The translations under genes were made by a program, and so were the position numbers. From Eledone cirrhosa (Eukaryota), in contig OZ024744.1 of assembly GCA_964016885.1 (NCBI GenBank), forward strand, positions 92,752,001-92,816,000: DNA of 64,000 bases, read 5' to 3'. Under the pieces are notes generated by a model. It saw only the letters and a list, made by a program, of their open reading frames with translations, had not been told where the DNA came from and ran no database searches. This document shows positions 2,570 to 35,169 of the stretch, piece by piece (within the stretch, counting starts at the first letter, position 1; each line of letters opens with the position of its first letter).

Positions 2570-5090
2570 CGGTGTGGCTCAATGAAAGAATTAATTAATC
2601 AAACAATTATTAATCAGAGTTATATATAAAATTCCAAGTTTGAAGAATTATTAGATAAAATATATCCAATCTTTCTTCACCCTATAGTCTGTAGAAATCA
2701 ACCACATAAATAATCATTTAAACGACACACATATTTAATAGACACACAATTAAGCTTTCTTATTCTACAACTATGAATATGGCCCAAAACATCACTAAAC
2801 TAAATAGTAGAATTCTAAACCTTCGACTTCTTTATCACAACTTATATGGTCATTAAAAGACAAAAATTTAAAATACTCGATTTTTTGGACGAAGCTTTGT
2901 AATAGTAGAATCTACTTGAACTCGTCTGTATCAACTATCTGCAACCTCTGTACTAAGGAGACCCTATTAATAATTACTAATTATGAAAACTTAATTAACA
3001 AAAAAAAAGTGAATTATTCTCAAACTGCCTTCATAAAGCTTTGTCTACATTCCAAGCCTCGCAAAAAGTCAGGAAAAAACACTAAACAAACAGGTTTTAA
3101 TTTTTGACGTCTCTTATCAACTGTTGTACCTAAAACGTTATAACAGTTTATAAAACTTTAATAATACTTTATTTTCTAATCATTTATGATAGAATTAATG
3201 TTAGAATGAAGGATCCTGTTTAGGTATATAAACATATTATTTGTTAACTTGTTCTCTTGATGAATATGCACACCTTTGGATTATTTTAGATATTTATCAT
3301 TTAAATTCGGATCCTTATATATATTTGTCTTTGTTTTAAATATATAATTTGGATATATAACTTGTAAGATTACCGGTTATAATTGAACCGTAAATCATTC
3401 ATGCATTTATATATTTTACTCATTTTGGGTATGTTTTGGGACTCAGAAAGTTAGATTTGCACATATATATGTTTTATATATATTTAGGTATAAATATAAC
3501 AAACCATACTAGTCGACAAATATTGGTCTCTCTTTCCACTGAACTGGAGGTAAAACTACAATTATAATATTACTAATAATGATTGTAATTATTTATTTAT
3601 TATATGTATATCGTTTCACTAATACCTATAATACTCTCTATATATATTTGAACAAATATGTTTATCTAGTATAATAACATGCTCGTAGTTACATTTATAA
3701 GTAATTTAGATACTCAAATGACTCTCTATTGTTATAAGGGTTAGATATTTCCTTAATGTTCGAAATTATATAATGATTATTACTTAATTTAATTTAATTT
3801 AATTTAATTTAATTTAATTAAATTTAGATTACCTCCGGGTCATTCAAATCCTTAGCTCCTCTTTCTATCACCTTCGTTTGACATTTTAGAAGTATCTTTT
3901 GTCTACTATATAATAAAACCCTCTTGCATTTTAAACTATATTTTTTAATATTGGCCATTTTTATGTTTCGCAAACAATTCATTATTTTTTCACTTTTTTT
4001 TTTTTATATCTAGTCCTTATCCTTAGAACTCATGAAGTTTTGTCTTATATATTTATAGTATATATCTATTAAATGATTCTTTACAATAATTGATCTAAAA
4101 CATTAATTTTTAACAATATTTTCAGTAACTTATTTACTATATTGTATTATGTTACGTATATTTGAAAGGTATCATCTTAAGTCTTTAGACAATATAATCT
4201 TTGTGCATTTTTTTTTGATAAACACATATATGTAATTTAAAATTCAGACCTTTTAAGTTTAATTATAAGGCCTGTTGATCCTTTAGGCACTCAAATTGTA
4301 AATCATAAATTCTTTAAAAATTATAACTGTAATTATTTTCTAAATTATATTATATAAGCTGTTGTCAATATTATATAATAAATTTGGTAAACCTTACCTT
4401 CGTAAGGTTGTTAAAACATTATGTTTTCTTTCTCGTGTTTGTAAATCCTTTAAATTTGATTTCATAAAATTTGATTTTAGAAATTAAATTTGATAGTATA
4501 CTTTAATATTAATACAGATACCTATTAACTTTTAAAACCTAAAATATTATTCATTACTCTGAACTAACTTAAATTAAATATTTTGAATATTAACGGTCAA
4601 CCAAATAAGTTTAGATATATATTGTATATATGGATAATTGTCTAAAGACTTGAACATAAGTTATTCCTCCTTATCTCTCTCTCTGTAATCAACTCTCTTT
4701 TGTTTTTCTAGGCCCCTACTAACTATATTATCTCCTCATCTGTTTCTTCCTCTATGCTTTTCTTTTCCTTCCTCTTTCTTCAGTAATTTAAATTATTTAA
4801 CTGTTATATTGATGCCAAGTATTTTTTAAGCCGTCTCACACGCACCCTCTCTATTGTATGTATTATATATTTTTCTCATGTTCTCAATATTAAGGTATAT
4901 AAATATTGAGTCTTGTCATATATTACTCACTACCATGACTGAATCTTAACCATCTACTATGTCAGGGTATGTCATGCATCATCTTATTTTATCTGATCAG
5001 GACGTACTGTTGAAGTTAACTCAGTACCTCTGAAATATGTATAATAAAATATACTTGATCACAAGAATATCTATTTTGTTAATATTTTGA
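2570..5090 (+). mobile_element. Degenerate PLE remnant (GIY-YIG C-terminus and long AT-rich 3' region)
   Basis: 2916-3107 encodes CNLCTKE..I....LIN, like CDLCAEE..I....LN at 13190-13378; ends with a decayed HHR. Confidence 0.5.
4986..5050 (+). ncRNA. Degenerate hammerhead ribozyme (G8 to C)
   Basis: ATTTTAT-CTGATCA-[gacgtactg/cagtacctc]-GAAA-tatgta-TA-ATAAAAT. Confidence 0.6.
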
Positions 5091-5100
5091 ATTAATATAT

Positions 5101-5845
5101 ATAAATCAATACTCACAAACCCGAACCAAGGCCTTTTGCCCATACGGGTTTGTGAGTATTGATTTATTATTTTTTAGATCGTACAGGCAAACTATATGTA
5201 TTTGAATTAAGATATTTCATTCTAACTATTTTATTAGTCAATTGCAACAAAAACATGTAAATGTTTATCATATATTAATTTATACTGCTCAGAAGCGATT
5301 CTTAGAGCTGAAATAATTGTAAATCAACCCATTGAGTGTAAACTCTAAGTTATATTATATTACTGCTCCCTCAGTCGAGCTGAATTTGTAATCCCATATA
5401 AACAGCTGTTATTTCTAGCACTATGTGTGGGAGGTTAGAGGACTGGAATAAGTCGTGTGCAAAACCTCGTGTATTTTCGCTACGTTAACCAGACCTTAGA
5501 TATTTTTCTGAGGTGAAGTTACTTAATTTATCTGGGTACCTATTGATGAATACAGAAAATTAATTAACTCACTACTAATTAATTAATTATTTCACTATTA
5601 TACCATCCTTTGTGAAACATATTTAAAGTTTGAAGTTCTGACCGATCTGCGGAAAAAGTTTGTATTTTGAAATTTAAACGTGTCTAGGTACCAAGGCCTT
5701 TTGCCCATACGGGTTTGTGAGTATTGATTTATTATTTTTTAGATCGTACAGGCAAACTATATGTATTTGAATTAAGATATTTCATTCTAACTATTTTATT
5801 AGTCAATTGCAACTAAAACATGTAAATGTTTATCATATATTAATA
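5101..5845 (+). mobile_element. Retrozyme-like non-coding repeat, family A (565-bp monomer, ~1.27 copies, 23-bp 5' inversion)
   Basis: 5125-5279 repeated at 5690-5844; 5101-5123 is the reverse complement of 5145-5167; contains an HHR. Confidence 0.8.
5535..5692 (+). ncRNA. Type I hammerhead ribozyme (U3 variant) with extended stems II and III
   Basis: GGTACCTA-TTGATGA...GAAA(5614)...GTC(5682-5684)-TAGGTACC; 8-bp perfect stem I. Confidence 0.8.
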
Positions 5846-5872
5846 TATATATACATATATATATATCATCAT

Positions 5873-10040: not shown

Positions 10041-10381
10041 GTATATATATAAATGTGTGAGAAAAACTACAAACCCTCCATCTCAATTCTACTTTTGAAA
10101 AGCAGAAGAACTGCGAAACCGGTAAAGGAACCAAATAAATATATATATATTTTTTTAAAAACTCCAGCTACATTTTCGATTTCATCTTTTTTCCTTATAT
10201 ATATATATATATATATAAATTAATATGTATGTGATGAAACACAGATACCAACACATCTGTATATATATTGCGAAAGAAAAATTTAGCCAGATTGAAGTAT
10301 ACTAATTATTATACTACAGTTTGTCCATATCGATTTAAAATAATAAATCAACGGAGACGAAGTGTATTGGCAAAAGGCCGT

Positions 10382-10509
10382 GATGTTTAGACACATTTAA
10401 ATTTCAAAATCAAACCTGTTCCGTAGATAAGTTTAGACTTTAAGATCCAAATATGTTTCGAGTTAAATAAGTGTAGGAATATCAAGTCCCCCTCTCCTCA
10501 GTAAACATC
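10382..10509 (-). ncRNA. Type I hammerhead ribozyme, family B (inverted arm)
   Basis: Reverse complement of 11192-11319. Confidence 0.85.
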
Positions 10510-11191
10510 CAGAGACAAATTGATATGCTTCACTTCTAAATAATTTAAAAGACTGCGTGGCGCACATGGCTTTACAGTATCTAACTAGTCTCATAACCGT
10601 ACTGCTAGAAATAACAGTCGTGTATATGAGGCGGCTTTGCAGCTCAAACTAGGAGCAGATTAAAATTAATAAGGTAATGAATTCTTTTACAATGGAAACA
10701 TATTTGGAAACATATTTGGAAACATATTTGGATCTTAAAGTCTAAACTTATCTACGGAACAGGTTTGATTTTGAAATTTAAATGTGTCTAAACATCACGG
10801 CCTTTTGCCAATACAGTTCGTCTCCGTTGATTTATTATTTTAAATCGATATGGACAAACTGTAGTATAATAATTAGTATACTTCAATCTGGCTAAATTTT
10901 TCTTTCGCAATATATATACAGATGTGTTGGTATCTGTGTTTCATCACATACATATTAATTTATACACTGCTCATGGGATATATATTTTCCTCATTCGAGC
11001 TGATTCCATTGTAAAAGAATTCATTACCTTATTAATTTTAATCTGCTCCTAGTTTGAGCTGCAAAGCCGCCTCATATACACGACTGTTATTTCTAGCAGT
11101 ACGGTTATGAGACTAGTTAGATACTGTAAAGCCATGTGCGCCACGCAGTCTTTTAAATTATTTAGAAGTGAAGCATATCAATTTGTCTCTG

Positions 11192-11319
11192 GATGTTTAC
11201 TGAGGAGAGGGGGACTTGATATTCCTACACTTATTTAACTCGAAACATATTTGGATCTTAAAGTCTAAACTTATCTACGGAACAGGTTTGATTTTGAAAT
11301 TTAAATGTGTCTAAACATC
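11192..11319 (+). ncRNA. Type I hammerhead ribozyme, family B, long stem III
   Basis: GATGTTTA-CTGAGGA-gag..ctc-GAAA-catatttgga..tttaaatgtg-TC-TAAACATC; GUC at 11309-11311. Confidence 0.88.
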
Positions 11320-11671
11320 ACGGCCTTTTGCCAATACACTTCGTCTCCGTTGATTTATTATTTTAAATCGATATGGACAAACTGTAGTATAATAATTAGT
11401 ATACTTCAATCTGGCTAAATTTTTCTTTCGCAATATATATACAGATGTGTTGGTATCTGTGTTTCATCACATACATATTAATTTATACACTGCTCATGGG
11501 ATATATTTTTTCCTCATTCGAGCTGATTCCATTGTAAAAGAATTCATTACCTTATTAATATATATATATATATGTATAAGTATTTCCTAAGAAAAAGCAA
11601 AGGAAAAAAGAGTGCTCTATATATAGAACAGAGCTATATAATTAGAAAGTGAACCACACAATATATAACTA

Positions 11672-11755: not shown

Positions 11756-11796
<41 letters not shown>

Positions 11797-11844
11797 GATA
11801 TTAAACAAATGGAAACTATATTTATATTTATAAAACCATATTTA

Positions 11845-11906
11845 TTTCGTTATATATATTTCTGGGATATCATATTAAAAATATGGTATACCTTCCTCAG
11901 ACAAAA
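11845..11906 (-). ncRNA. Type I hammerhead ribozyme in inverted pLTR
   Basis: Reverse complement of 14647-14708. Confidence 0.75.
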
Positions 11907-12388
11907 TACAATACATAAGCTGTTTTATAAATAATTATTGACATACCTTATAATAATGCGACTTCCATTTAAAAAGTTGATTTGGTAGTGAAACTGTTAT
12001 GACAGTTATATAGAAAGAAAAACGAAGATGAGAAGAAGAAGATGAAGAGATGTATGTAAATAAAAAAAGAAGAAGATGAAGAGATGTATGTAAAGAAAAA
12101 CAACAGAACGAGATAGAGAGACAAGGAGATATGGGAGAGAGAAATACATTGAGGAAGTGAAAAAATATAGTAGGCAGCTTTTGGACAGATGATCATCGTA
12201 TATGTGAGAGGTTAAGGAGGGAAGGGATACAGTTAAACTAGCCGACACATAAATCACGTCCAGTGTATAGGAGAAAAAGAAAGAAAGATGATATATTTAA
12301 AATATATTAAAAATATATTATGTCTCATCCATTTGAATTATCAATTTTTATGAATTAGGTATTATAATGTAAATATCAGTATTCGTGA

Positions 12389-13378
12389 ATGAGACACATA
12401 AATGAAAACTTGAATTATGTCAATTTTAGCTCCAATCACCCCAGATCTGTCAAAAATACTATAGTGAACTCTGTTCAAAAACGTATCTCTAGAATCTCTT
12501 CCAATAAAAATATTTTTGACGAAAAAGCCCAGTATTATAATGAAGCTTTAGCTAGAGCAGGATATAGTGATAAAATGATGTACATCGATAATAGACAAAC
12601 TAACCAAAATAACAACAATTTTAATTACAGTAACAACTTTAACAACTATAATAGAAAGCACTACGATAATTTCAAAAACCAGAAAAGAAATAGAACTAGA
12701 AATATAATATGGTTTGCCCCCCCTTTCTCACTAAACATTAAAACCCACATCGCTAAACTATTTTTTAATGCTCTTGACAAACGCTTCCCTAGAACACATA
12801 AGTATCACTCAATTTTCAATAGACATACTATAAAATTAACGTACTCGTCCACCAAAAATTTAGCACAAAATATTAATAGAATAAATAATAGGAATCTAAA
12901 ACCTAGCTAAAATACCGAAAATAGCCTAAACAATATTCAAGTAAAAAACTGTAACTGTAGAGATAGATCTAAATGTCCGCTAAATAACAATTGCTTAGTT
13001 AAAAATATAATATACAACTGTAATGTTAGAACTGATTTAAATTCTTTTAATTATGTTGGTTCCACCTCGACAGAATTTAAACTTTGCTATAATAATCACA
13101 AAAATTCTTTCACGGATCCAAATAAAAAATCTTCAACATCACTGTCAGGGTTACTCTGGCAACTTAAGCATGATAAAGTTGGATATTCGATGGTTTGGAA
13201 TATAGTCTCAAAAGGGATTCCTTTTAATTCCTCTTCTGAGACATGTGACCTCTGCGCGGAGGAGATATTCTTTATACTAAAATCTAAAAATTCCCTTAAT
13301 TTACGAACCAATTTATTCAGCTGCTGCAGACATAGATTGAACTCAACTTTTAAATATAAATATAAATTTAAAATGTAG
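12389..13378 (+). pseudogene. PLE thumb + GIY-YIG endonuclease remnant (disrupted)
   Basis: SNHPRSV..RISRISS..ALARAGY, RNIIWFAPPFS, CNCR...CPL..NCL..NIIY..YVGST, CDLCAEE..CRHR. Confidence 0.85.
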
Positions 13379-14646
13379 TATAAAATGTAGTATATTTACT
13401 TAAGATATTTAACTATTTATGAAACTTGGTGATAAATCTTTCGATTCCTTCAATTTTTTTAAAAACCTTTCTGCATGAATATATAATTAATGAGATTAAA
13501 TAAACTACCCTAAAATTGGCGTTGTTCCCAATCTTTTGAATAAATTTTTAAGCTGGATAAACTTCTATAATAAATATAAGAGCATTTGTAGAATAAGTTT
13601 TGAATGATTTCTGCTAAATAAGGCTTGGTGAACAATTTTGGTTTTGTTTGCTTTTGATTCTGATTTTATGTGACCGATATGCGTGGCATACTATGTTCTC
13701 TTGCGTCCTTAGATACTCTGTGGAGTGACGAAGATATTCTTGGCGTTTTTAATTTTTAATATTGATATCTGTTGTCTACTCTATGCTTGATCGATAATCA
13801 TGCAAGTGAGGCTGGAATGTTATTTTATATATTTTATGTCTATATATATGTATTTATGTATGTAAATGTATGTAGGGTGGAATCTTTTGTAACGCAATGA
13901 AGTTTTTCATGAAATATAAGAATCTGTGCAGCATATCACGTAGGTTCACATGTGTGTCTATATTTATCAACTTGAGTTTGAGATAACCTTCTCTTTTCTC
14001 TTTTTCTTTTTTCACGAGAATGCATATATACTTATGTTTGAAGTTTTATCTCAGATTTTGCTTATAGACCTAAGAATTTTTAAACTGAGCATGTGGTCAT
14101 TTTTTCACACATTATGGATATGTGTCTCATTCATGAATACTGATATTTACATTATAATACCTAATTCGTAAAAATTGATAATTCAAATGGATGAGACATA
14201 ATATATTTTTAATATATTTTAAATATATCATCTTTCTTTCTTTTTCTCCTATACACTGGACGTGATTTATGTGTCGGCTAGTTTAACTGTATCCCTTCCC
14301 TCCTTAACCTCTCACATATACGATGATCATCTGTCCAAAAGCTGCCTACTATATTTTTTCACTTCCTCAATGTATTTCTCTCTCCCATATCTCCTTGTCT
14401 CTCTATCTCGCTCTGTTGTTTTTCTTTACATACATCTCTTCATCTTCTTCTTTTTTTCTTTACATACATCTCTTCATCTTCTTCTTTTTTTATTTACATA
14501 CATCTCTTCATCTTCTTCTTCTCATCTTCGTTTTTCTTTCTATATAACTGTCATAACAGTTTCACTACCAAATCAACTTTTTAAATGGAAGTCGCATTAT
14601 TATAAGGTATGTCAATAATTATTTATAAAACAGCTTATGTATTGTA

Positions 14647-14708
14647 TTTTGTCTGAGGAAGGTATACCATATTTTTAATATGATATCCCAGAAATATATA
14701 TAACGAAA
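14647..14708 (+). ncRNA. Type I hammerhead ribozyme in pLTR
   Basis: TTTTGT-CTGAGGA-[catatt/aatatg stem]-GAAA-tatata-TA-ACGAAA; palindromic stem III. Confidence 0.75.
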
Positions 14709-14844
14709 TAAATATGGTTTTATAAATATAAATATAGTTTCCATTTGTTTAATATCGTAAACCTACTCCAGAAACTGTTGAGTGCTTTTATATCAGTTAT
14801 AAAATATTTACTCGTTGTAACCCAACAATCTTAAATAAAACTTT

Positions 14845-14895
<51 letters not shown>

Positions 14896-14897
<2 letters not shown>

Positions 14898-15227
14898 CAT
14901 TTCATTTCATTTCATATTACGTCCGCTTTACCCTGCTTGCAAGGGTGGGACGGGAACTGATTCTGGCTTGATTTCTACAGATGGATGCCCTTCCTAACAC
15001 CAACCTCATTTACAGTGAGTGCTGGGTGCTTTTTTGCCGTGGCACCTCCACGACCATTTTGCAGTGGAATGATAGGGACCCCAGTCCCTATCATCTCATT
15101 TCTACAGCTGAGTAAACTGGAGCAATGTGAAATAAAGTGTCTTGCTCAAGGAAACAACACATCTCCCGGTCTGAGAATTGAACTCACAACCTTTCGATTA
15201 CAAGGCCAATGCTCTAACCACTAAGCC
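14896..15227 (-). mobile_element. tRNA-derived CORE-like SINE with RTE-like 3' tail
   Basis: Head GGCTTAGTGGTTAGAGC..GAGTTCAATTC, ccttgagcaagacactt, tail ttaggaagggcatcca; five copies in window. Confidence 0.85.
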
Positions 15228-15263
15228 GGGTATATATATATATATATATACACATATATATAC

Positions 15264-34828: not shown

Positions 34829-35169
34829 TCATTTCATTCATTTCATTTTACGTTCGCTTTTTCCCTGCTTGCAAGGGTGGGACGGGAACTGATGCTGGCT
34901 TGATTTCTACAGCTGGATGCCCTTCCTAACACCAACCTCATTTACAGTGAGTGCTGGGTGCTTTTTTGCCGTGGCACCTCCACGACCACTTTGCAGTGGA
35001 ATGATATGGACCCCAGTCCCTATCATCTCATTTCTACAGCTGAGTAAACTGGAGCAATGTGAAATAAAGTGTCTTGCTCAAGGAAACAACACATCACCCG
35101 GTCTGAGAATTGAACTCACAACCTTTCGATTGCAAGGCCAATGCTCTAACCACTAAGCCATGTGCCTCC

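Follow-up and report, generated by a model that had tools for sequence, protein, structure and literature searches.

Animal non-LTR retrozymes have been described as non-coding, AT-rich tandem units that carry one type I hammerhead each, the mussel offering an example (PMC7229834). Based on co-occurrence and on trees of terminal repeats, they have been argued to be non-autonomous derivatives of Penelope-like elements (PLEs), in a preprint which also states that the retrozyme-PLE mechanism is still to be worked out (10.64898/2026.07.22.740005). Most animal type I hammerheads have a helix III of 1-2 pairs and need to dimerise (PMC4209133). PLEs are recognised by partial tandems, inverted 5'-truncated arms and a tail that is often at one end only; those of the Hydra clade are described with a C-terminal GIY-YIG domain, a CxCX5C linker, CxxC, CxH, RWK and DKT motifs, no CCHH motif and a (TA)n target, and an octopus family of the clade, Hydra-1_Obim, is in the supplement of the same paper (PMC8557442). 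For the Poseidon PLE of Anolis carolinensis, reverse transcription in vitro starts at two internal sites that bound the tail, both strands are cut and extended, and a dimer is predicted (PMC11167929).

In this study, we have explored a window of 64,000 nucleotides from the octopus Eledone cirrhosa, in which an earlier note had read a 565-nt repeat as a hammerhead-bearing element (family A) related to a second one (family B); a third family (C) was found in the same genome. We conclude that family A is probably a non-LTR retrozyme, with ends fixed in (TA)n, that is copied by the reverse transcriptase-endonuclease of a Hydra-clade PLE, the enzyme likely reading its hairpins as starts. As in animal non-LTR retrozymes, the units of families A, B and C are non-coding, stand in tandem and contain a single type I hammerhead each. 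Their units measure 523-565 nt, against 150-450 nt typically (PMC7229834) and up to 972 nt (10.64898/2026.07.22.740005), helix III has about 26 bp rather than 1-2 bp, and a U3-A8 core is fixed in two of the families (A and C), unlike in animal non-LTR retrozymes as described. The link to PLEs is drawn here from insertion ends and a common cis-signal, in place of the co-occurrence or terminal-repeat similarity used in the retrozyme papers, and A, B and C are known from DNA alone.

With Hydra-clade PLEs as outlined in PMC8557442, the three families share the (TA)n target, the partial tandem with an inverted 5'-truncated arm, the tail at one end and the hammerhead in the repeat, although this tail has 72-82 nt rather than 30-40 bp. 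With the Hydra PLEs of this genome they also share two RCTC..GAGY hairpins; unlike these, they have no ORF and no extended sequence homology to them was found, and their hammerhead is large and predicted to act as a monomer, whereas that of the Hydra families is minimal and palindromic. As in Poseidon, two end sites bound a tail downstream of the hammerhead and the target is AT-rich. However, the Poseidon start lies in an AC-rich stem-loop that is not target-homologous, whereas the sites of A, B and C each abut TA-like sequence, and no pairing of strand with site was seen for Poseidon (PMC11167929), whereas A, B and C use one site per arm, each site with its own copy of the hairpin. The covariation of positions 3 and 8 and the candidate base pairing between domains I and II recall the U3-A8 and pseudoknotted hammerheads of PMC3088659, and a stable helix III permitting monomer cleavage, as predicted in A, B and C, recalls the fungal and protist PLE hammerheads of PMC4209133; relative to what those sources describe, these features are combined here in multi-copy animal elements with a domain II of 35-82 nt. 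The retrozyme class, U3-A8, the large helix III of fungal and protist PLEs and the one-sided tail are each in print separately. We found no description of families A, B and C in the literature searched; Repbase and Dfam were outside its scope and may already catalogue them.

The family A insertion and its relatives

The window copy of family A is a complete insertion on the forward strand at 5101-5849, and not up to 5845 as first noted. It consists of a short inverted left arm and 1.28 tandem units, followed by (TA)n. The arm (5101-5123, reverse strand, 23 nt) is the reverse complement of 5145-5167; its end matches neither of the usual end sites, and ends within about 5 nt of it occur in L004, L005 and L013. 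A single 565-nt unit occupies 5125-5689 and, in agreement with the repeat originally proposed, part of a second unit (5690-5849, 160 nt) matches it at 99% over 155-160 nt. No ATG ORF of more than 40 aa overlaps the unit.

Directly 3' of stem I, the unit carries a GGC-loop-GCC mini hairpin (5130-5140, with a second copy at 5695-5705), which is common to A, B and C with 96.7% of cells paired, and then a long hairpin 3' of the cut site (5142-5200) that is predicted in each of the three families on its own. End site 1, the likely start of reverse transcription, is at 5284 (unit position 160), and the insertion terminates at the equivalent position, 5849. A few nt 3' of this site lies hairpin 1 (5285-5310), a GCTC..GAGC stem of four pairs that is formed in 30 of 30 sequences. 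The 76-nt tail (5285-5360) spans end site 1 to end site 2 (5360, unit position 236), which is followed within a few nt by hairpin 2 (5363-5382), again with a GCTC..GAGC stem, and a hairpin with a conserved CTGTTATTTCTAGC cap, predicted in A, B and C, lies at 5392-5432. The earlier note had listed both hairpins (as CTGCTC..GAGCTG) and a motif order common to A and B, and both observations are borne out; our analysis adds that the two hairpins mark the two ends of the element and tie family A to PLEs. The window also holds a family B insertion with a 523-nt unit (10214-11559), in which the inverted left arm stops at site 1 and the right arm at site 2; its core is the canonical C3-G8 form (11200-11206), with C17 at 11311.

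Searching the 3.0-Gb assembly, an exact junction pattern of A and B gave 474 matches against 2 for the reversed control, and the core pattern of family A gave 210; in DNA searches with A and B, 40 of 1264 and 39 of 1073 first-look candidates, respectively, were scored. Copies of A, B and C are dispersed on many contigs as non-coding tandem units of low GC without LTR. Family C, with a unit of 557 nt, was found through a pattern of the tail, and no fourth family was present among the first 100 of 1376 matches. Patterns based on the stems of A and B yielded no third family, only A, B, a 59-bp satellite and unrelated matches; none of five fetched third-family candidates, nor L132 or L168, is a relative. 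Three runs of contigs (of unrecorded kind, from one sample) echoed only the common letters of the family.

The sequence between the motifs had been called poorly alignable, which does not hold: A and B align end to end with a global score of 408.5 against 217+/-12 for 100 shuffles, at 58% identity with gaps included (49% shuffled), 62.5% over gap-free columns and 73-74% across about 180 nt near the cut. Among 10 stretches per family, members of different families are on average 62.5-64.5% identical, and members of one family 94.4-97.5%. The idea of an old radiation is right for the split between families, which are about 36% diverged, but not for the spread within each family (94-97% identity), which is recent.

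Several neighbouring repeats were recorded in passing. Window positions 2734-5100 hold an older, broken Hydra-like PLE, with pieces of the reverse transcriptase C-terminus and endonuclease at 2734-3073 and a minimal hammerhead (4984-5052) with a C at core position 8; the TA end of this PLE is the insertion site of the family A copy. In TA tracts adjoining A and B copies there are at least five minimal-hammerhead families with a palindromic 6-nt loop III and a domain II of about 30 nt (L005, L014, L019, L023, L028, L041, L052, L055, L060, L064, L108, L110, L111 and L115), and different PLE families nest in the same microsatellites. One family C insertion occurs twice with identical flanks, in opposite orientation and about 0.9 Mb apart (L130 and L131, G000:C1:35.17 and 36.10 Mb), as a segmental duplication or an assembly duplicate. 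The 59-bp satellite (G000:C1:424841456-424846952, and L074) has a CTGCTC..GAGCTG hairpin in its unit and appears unrelated to A, B and C. Elsewhere in the window, a tRNA-like head (15164-15230, reverse strand; Rfam tRNA, 29.1 bits) lies in a likely SINE that is repeated at 34859 and 35858, and 42920-64000 is a 21-kb satellite with a 14-bp unit, about 1500 copies and 88% matches.

The hammerhead and the covariation of its stems

At the level of the families, the ribozyme has the core, GAAA, UH and 3-8 pair of a type I hammerhead, with stem I open and stems II and III closed. In the window copy, stem I is formed by GGTACCTA (5535-5542) and TAGGTACC (5685-5692); between these arms lie the core U3-U4-G5-A6-U7-G8-A9 (TTGATGA, 5543-5549), domain II (5550-5613, 64 nt, a 58-nt loop closed by a 3-bp stem), the core GAAA (5614-5617), the long helix III (5617-5683) and C17 of GUC at 5684. 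The predicted cut, placed at C5684 in the earlier note as well, is 3' of C17, a position which we take from the hammerhead consensus. Helix III, also anticipated there, has 26 counted pairs.

The core named for this copy, UUGAUGA, is present at 5543-5549 but is not that of the family, which is UUGAUAA: 65 of 68 fetched instances have A8, as do 99 of the first 100 genome matches (210 in total), and U3 is invariant among them. Family C has the same core, with U3-A8 in 48 of 48 instances, and family B has C3-G8 in 53 of 54. U3 is thus no lesion; U3-A8 is a rare natural swap of the C3-G8 pair and a natural, active hammerhead variant (PMC3088659). Since A8 compensates U3 in the family, the informative comparison is between U3-A8 and the U3-G8 of the window copy. 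This copy carries three rare ribozyme changes, at 5548 (A8G), 5551 (T, a minority letter) and 5621 (A, private to it), and has only one hammerhead, whereas loci L003, L033 and L144 have 2-4 in tandem; with its U3-G8 mismatch, it is likely decayed and a dead end. We rejected A-to-I editing of the template as the source of A8G, since singletons comprise 33 A>G and 47 T>C changes (P=0.65).

To compare the families as RNA, we built a structural alignment of 30 natural stretches, 10 per family, picked from 43 to span subfamilies. RNAalifold recovered stems I and III unprompted, and in the named structure 96.8% of 1080 cells are paired, against 18-50% (at most 49.5%) with slid partners. Double changes occur at 9 of 36 pairs, including 3-8 (UA in 20, CG in 10). 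In stem I the four double changes reported between A and B (GGTACCTA/TAGGTACC against GATGTTTA/TAAACATC) are confirmed, and with the third family there are six among the eight pairs, without a break between A, B and C; they fall at five of the eight pairs, one position having three pair types. The tertiary pair 3-8 and the pair 10.1-11.1 have likewise changed on both sides. Counted by lineage, the 5' and 3' sides have eight changes each, and these occupy the same 8 of 30 pair-by-branch slots, a coincidence of 1 in 5.9 million if the sides changed independently, on a star tree and with only three lineages assumed. On the number of pairs, a shuffle control was not separated from the data (437/500), and the covariation is below R-scape grade because the signal comes from only three lineages. 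Stem II of B and the CTGTTATTTCTAGC hairpin of A are misregistered in the alignment and were therefore omitted from the pair counts, 10.1-11.1 being the only pair of the misregistered helices that was kept. In helix III, variation is confined to one side in 12 of 24 pairs, many of the changes leading to G-U. The three-family comparison thus found covariation together with a catalytic core in each consensus, and these comparisons of sequence support, more strongly than the window letters could, the proposal that the RNA fold has been preserved by selection while the families diverged.

Other parts of the fold are more relaxed. Domain II has 64 nt in A, 35 in B and 82 in C; stem II is just 3 bp, is missing from the minimum-energy fold of A copies and often has a mismatch in B (GTG in 15 of 68 raw hits). 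Relative to the predicted minimum, the hammerhead fold is less stable by 2.4-3.2 kcal/mol in typical copies and by 8.4 kcal/mol in the window copy. In family C, a U4C lineage is present at five fetched loci (L146, L149, L156, L163 and L167; 11 of 48 instances), and in two units of L149 position 17 is a G as well. A CTG 5' of stem I (5532-5534 in the window) can pair with a CAG that begins loop II (5553-5555) in A, B and C, over 7-10 bp including a bulge, and 97.8% of 136 cells are paired, one pair showing a double change. We regard this domain I-II contact as a candidate pseudoknot, modelled on the pairing; pseudoknots linking domains I and II are common (PMC3088659). Activity as a monomer is predicted because helix III is long. 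Rfam hammerhead models gave no hit at the gathering score in the window, nor up to E=10 in four loci, likely because of the long inserts.

Insertion ends and the paired hairpins

Copies have ragged 5' ends, two fixed 3' ends and flanks that are mostly (TA)n. Counted from the cut, the two end sites are at 165 and 241 in A, 176 and 250 in B, and 157 and 239 in C, and 191 of 214 aligned pieces terminate within 8 nt of either site (16 loci that were reference loci or overlapped others were left out). Of 77 two-armed inverted insertions, we excluded 16 in which an end matched neither site. Both ends are canonical in the remaining 61, and in 59 of these the two arms use different sites (P=8e-16 against 50:50, in a sample that is not random because it was drawn from best-scoring and pattern hits). 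A GCTC..GAGC hairpin stands a few bases 3' of each end site, and every unit of A, B and C has exactly two RCTC..GAGY motifs, whose GCTC/GAGC stem shows no covariation among the three families. In the literature searched, we found neither a paired hairpin common to retrozymes and Hydra PLEs nor a tally of the one-site-per-arm rule.

The 45 nt that follow the cut hold more 5' ends than expected, with a hazard ratio of 2.4 for second arms (P=0.002) and of 1.6 when main arms are included (P=0.018), an excess that could be due to cut templates or to stalling of the enzyme at stems. Most long arms pass through the intact junction, and arms of 2-2.6 units exist. In a comparison of units made with a possible circular template in mind, those of the same insertion are closer to each other than the family average and usually not closer than to the nearest other insertion (37 of 95, with identical units collapsed, which inflates the distance within insertions).

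Hydra-clade elements as the source of the enzyme

The window contains a 5'-truncated, two-armed copy of a Hydra-clade PLE, family H1 (11794-14848), with one arm per end site, a minimal hammerhead core at 14653 and an ACTC..GAGT hairpin after site 1. This copy shows the kind of element that likely supplies the enzyme. L109, a full-length relative of H1 with an ORF of 741 aa, has the order hammerhead, site 1, ACTC..GAGT hairpin, tail, site 2, GCTC..GAGC hairpin, start codon; by eye, its ORF displays RWR, DKT, CNC-X5-C, CDLC and CRH, which place it in the Hydra clade, and Pfam gave no hit on the H1 ORF. In the 4.85 kb of full-length H1, RCTC..GAGY occurs only three times, always at end sites (P=0.07 for the count alone), and the one-of-each rule holds in six of six H1 loci with both arms. 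H1 is very abundant and young, with many open frames of more than 700 aa; all 150 scored hits to its endonuclease, from 60,907 first-look candidates, have 94-100% identity.

The hairpin after site 1 is also present at the hammerhead ends of families H2, H3 and H4, with an A-U/G-C exchange in its first pair. We then tested the prediction of a hairpin after site 2 of H2: the pattern gave 263 matches against 0 in the control, and 98 of the first 100 matches have a hairpin-bearing continuation. This second hairpin precedes a Hydra-like ORF of about 45-62% identity to H1, and it shares 18 of 20 nt with the second hairpin of family C. An exception is a repeat at L045:777 and L026:465 that has no RCTC..GAGY hairpin within 210 nt. 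It has a compact canonical hammerhead with a short stem II and a 4-nt palindromic loop III, and at L045 it abuts a family B piece.

No autonomous element with extended homology to A, B or C was found, the H2 match being at hairpin 2 only; there was no ORF junction at 18 extra family A loci, and protein searches for an autonomous partner returned family H1 alone among the scored hits. The putative link of A, B and C to Hydra elements is drawn, at the level of DNA, from a short motif and from the behaviour of the ends. Based on these observations, we propose tentatively, and with some doubt, that the paired RCTC..GAGY hairpin is a portable start signal of Hydra PLEs, read by a dimer with one strand for each hairpin, and that A, B and C parasitise it with a large, pseudoknotted, monomer-active U3-A8 hammerhead. 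If true, priming of one target strand per hairpin by such a dimer would account for the one-sided tail and the inverted structure of PLEs.

A likely sequence of events would start with transcription of a tandem locus. The hammerhead, predicted to be active as a monomer, would cut the transcript into unit-length RNAs, which may circularise. Two PLE protein units would bind hairpins 1 and 2 and nick both strands of a (TA)n target, and cDNA would be primed a few nt 5' of each hairpin, aided by TA microhomology. Both cDNAs would extend upstream, often via the junction into tandem copies, and then stop; joined head to head, they would give an inverted insertion with a tail on one arm only.

The hammerhead step is where another reading can be proposed, namely that mobility is driven by PLEs all the same while the ribozyme is dispensable or rarely used, uncut linear read-through transcripts serving as templates without a circle. 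Mutating the hammerhead left insertion in vitro normal and RNA-seq gave no reads ending at the cut (PMC11167929), and only one of nine Xenopus dimers was cut in vitro (10.64898/2026.07.22.740005). The U4C lineage of C, the lax stem II of B and the passage of most long arms through an intact junction point the same way. We nevertheless consider it unlikely. The three families agree at ten core positions, against a background of 51% identical gap-free columns (0.51^10=0.001), and positions 3 and 8 change together; U4C is still compatible with viroid infectivity (PMC3088659). Moreover, a linear template would presumably lose about one unit per round, because a start would need a downstream hairpin, and yet arms of 2-2.6 units occur.

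It is more doubtful still that the hairpins act in DNA or cDNA, through endonuclease recognition or the resolution of intermediates, and that A, B and C arose by amplification of the terminal repeats of an autonomous PLE that has not been found. The endonuclease of Drosophila Penelope required tail DNA for recognition, as recounted in PMC11167929, the tail has been ascribed to endonuclease-mediated resolution (PMC8557442), and of some 60,900 first-look endonuclease candidates the scored ones represent one family only, which leaves room for such an element. Against this, the inserted DNA stops short of the hairpin that marks its end, so that this hairpin was present only in the template, hairpin 2 of tandem units runs straight into the hammerhead region without an ORF remnant, and the autonomous families that we have seen have a minimal helix III and about 50 nt from cut to site 1, against 157-176 nt in A, B and C. 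Finally, it is highly improbable that the compensatory changes reflect DNA-level homogenisation of inverted repeats (template switching, conversion) in a spreading satellite with an incidental likeness to hammerheads: the elements are rich in inverted repeats, with a self-complementary hexamer within the stem I arms of A, and have no Rfam hammerhead hit, but positions 3 and 8, five bases apart, form a tertiary contact and no inverted repeat, many helix III changes lead to G-U, which pairs in RNA (12 of 24 pairs varying on one side only), and copies are dispersed on many contigs with fixed 3' and ragged 5' ends.

Returning to family A as a probable retrozyme copied by a Hydra-clade PLE, how PLEs choose their RNA and how inverted, one-tailed insertions originate are mostly unsolved. 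Families A, B and C offer a testable answer: a hairpin of about 16-32 nt at both starts, common to parasite and autonomous element, together with a near-strict rule of one site per arm. If the hairpin is portable, a cis-signal would be defined for a retro-enzyme that targets (TA)n. These families are also a natural experiment, in which entire animal repeat families run on a U3-A8 core with a long helix III, a form that standard searches missed here; if our reading is true, an uncounted class of large animal hammerheads, missed by Rfam models, may exist.
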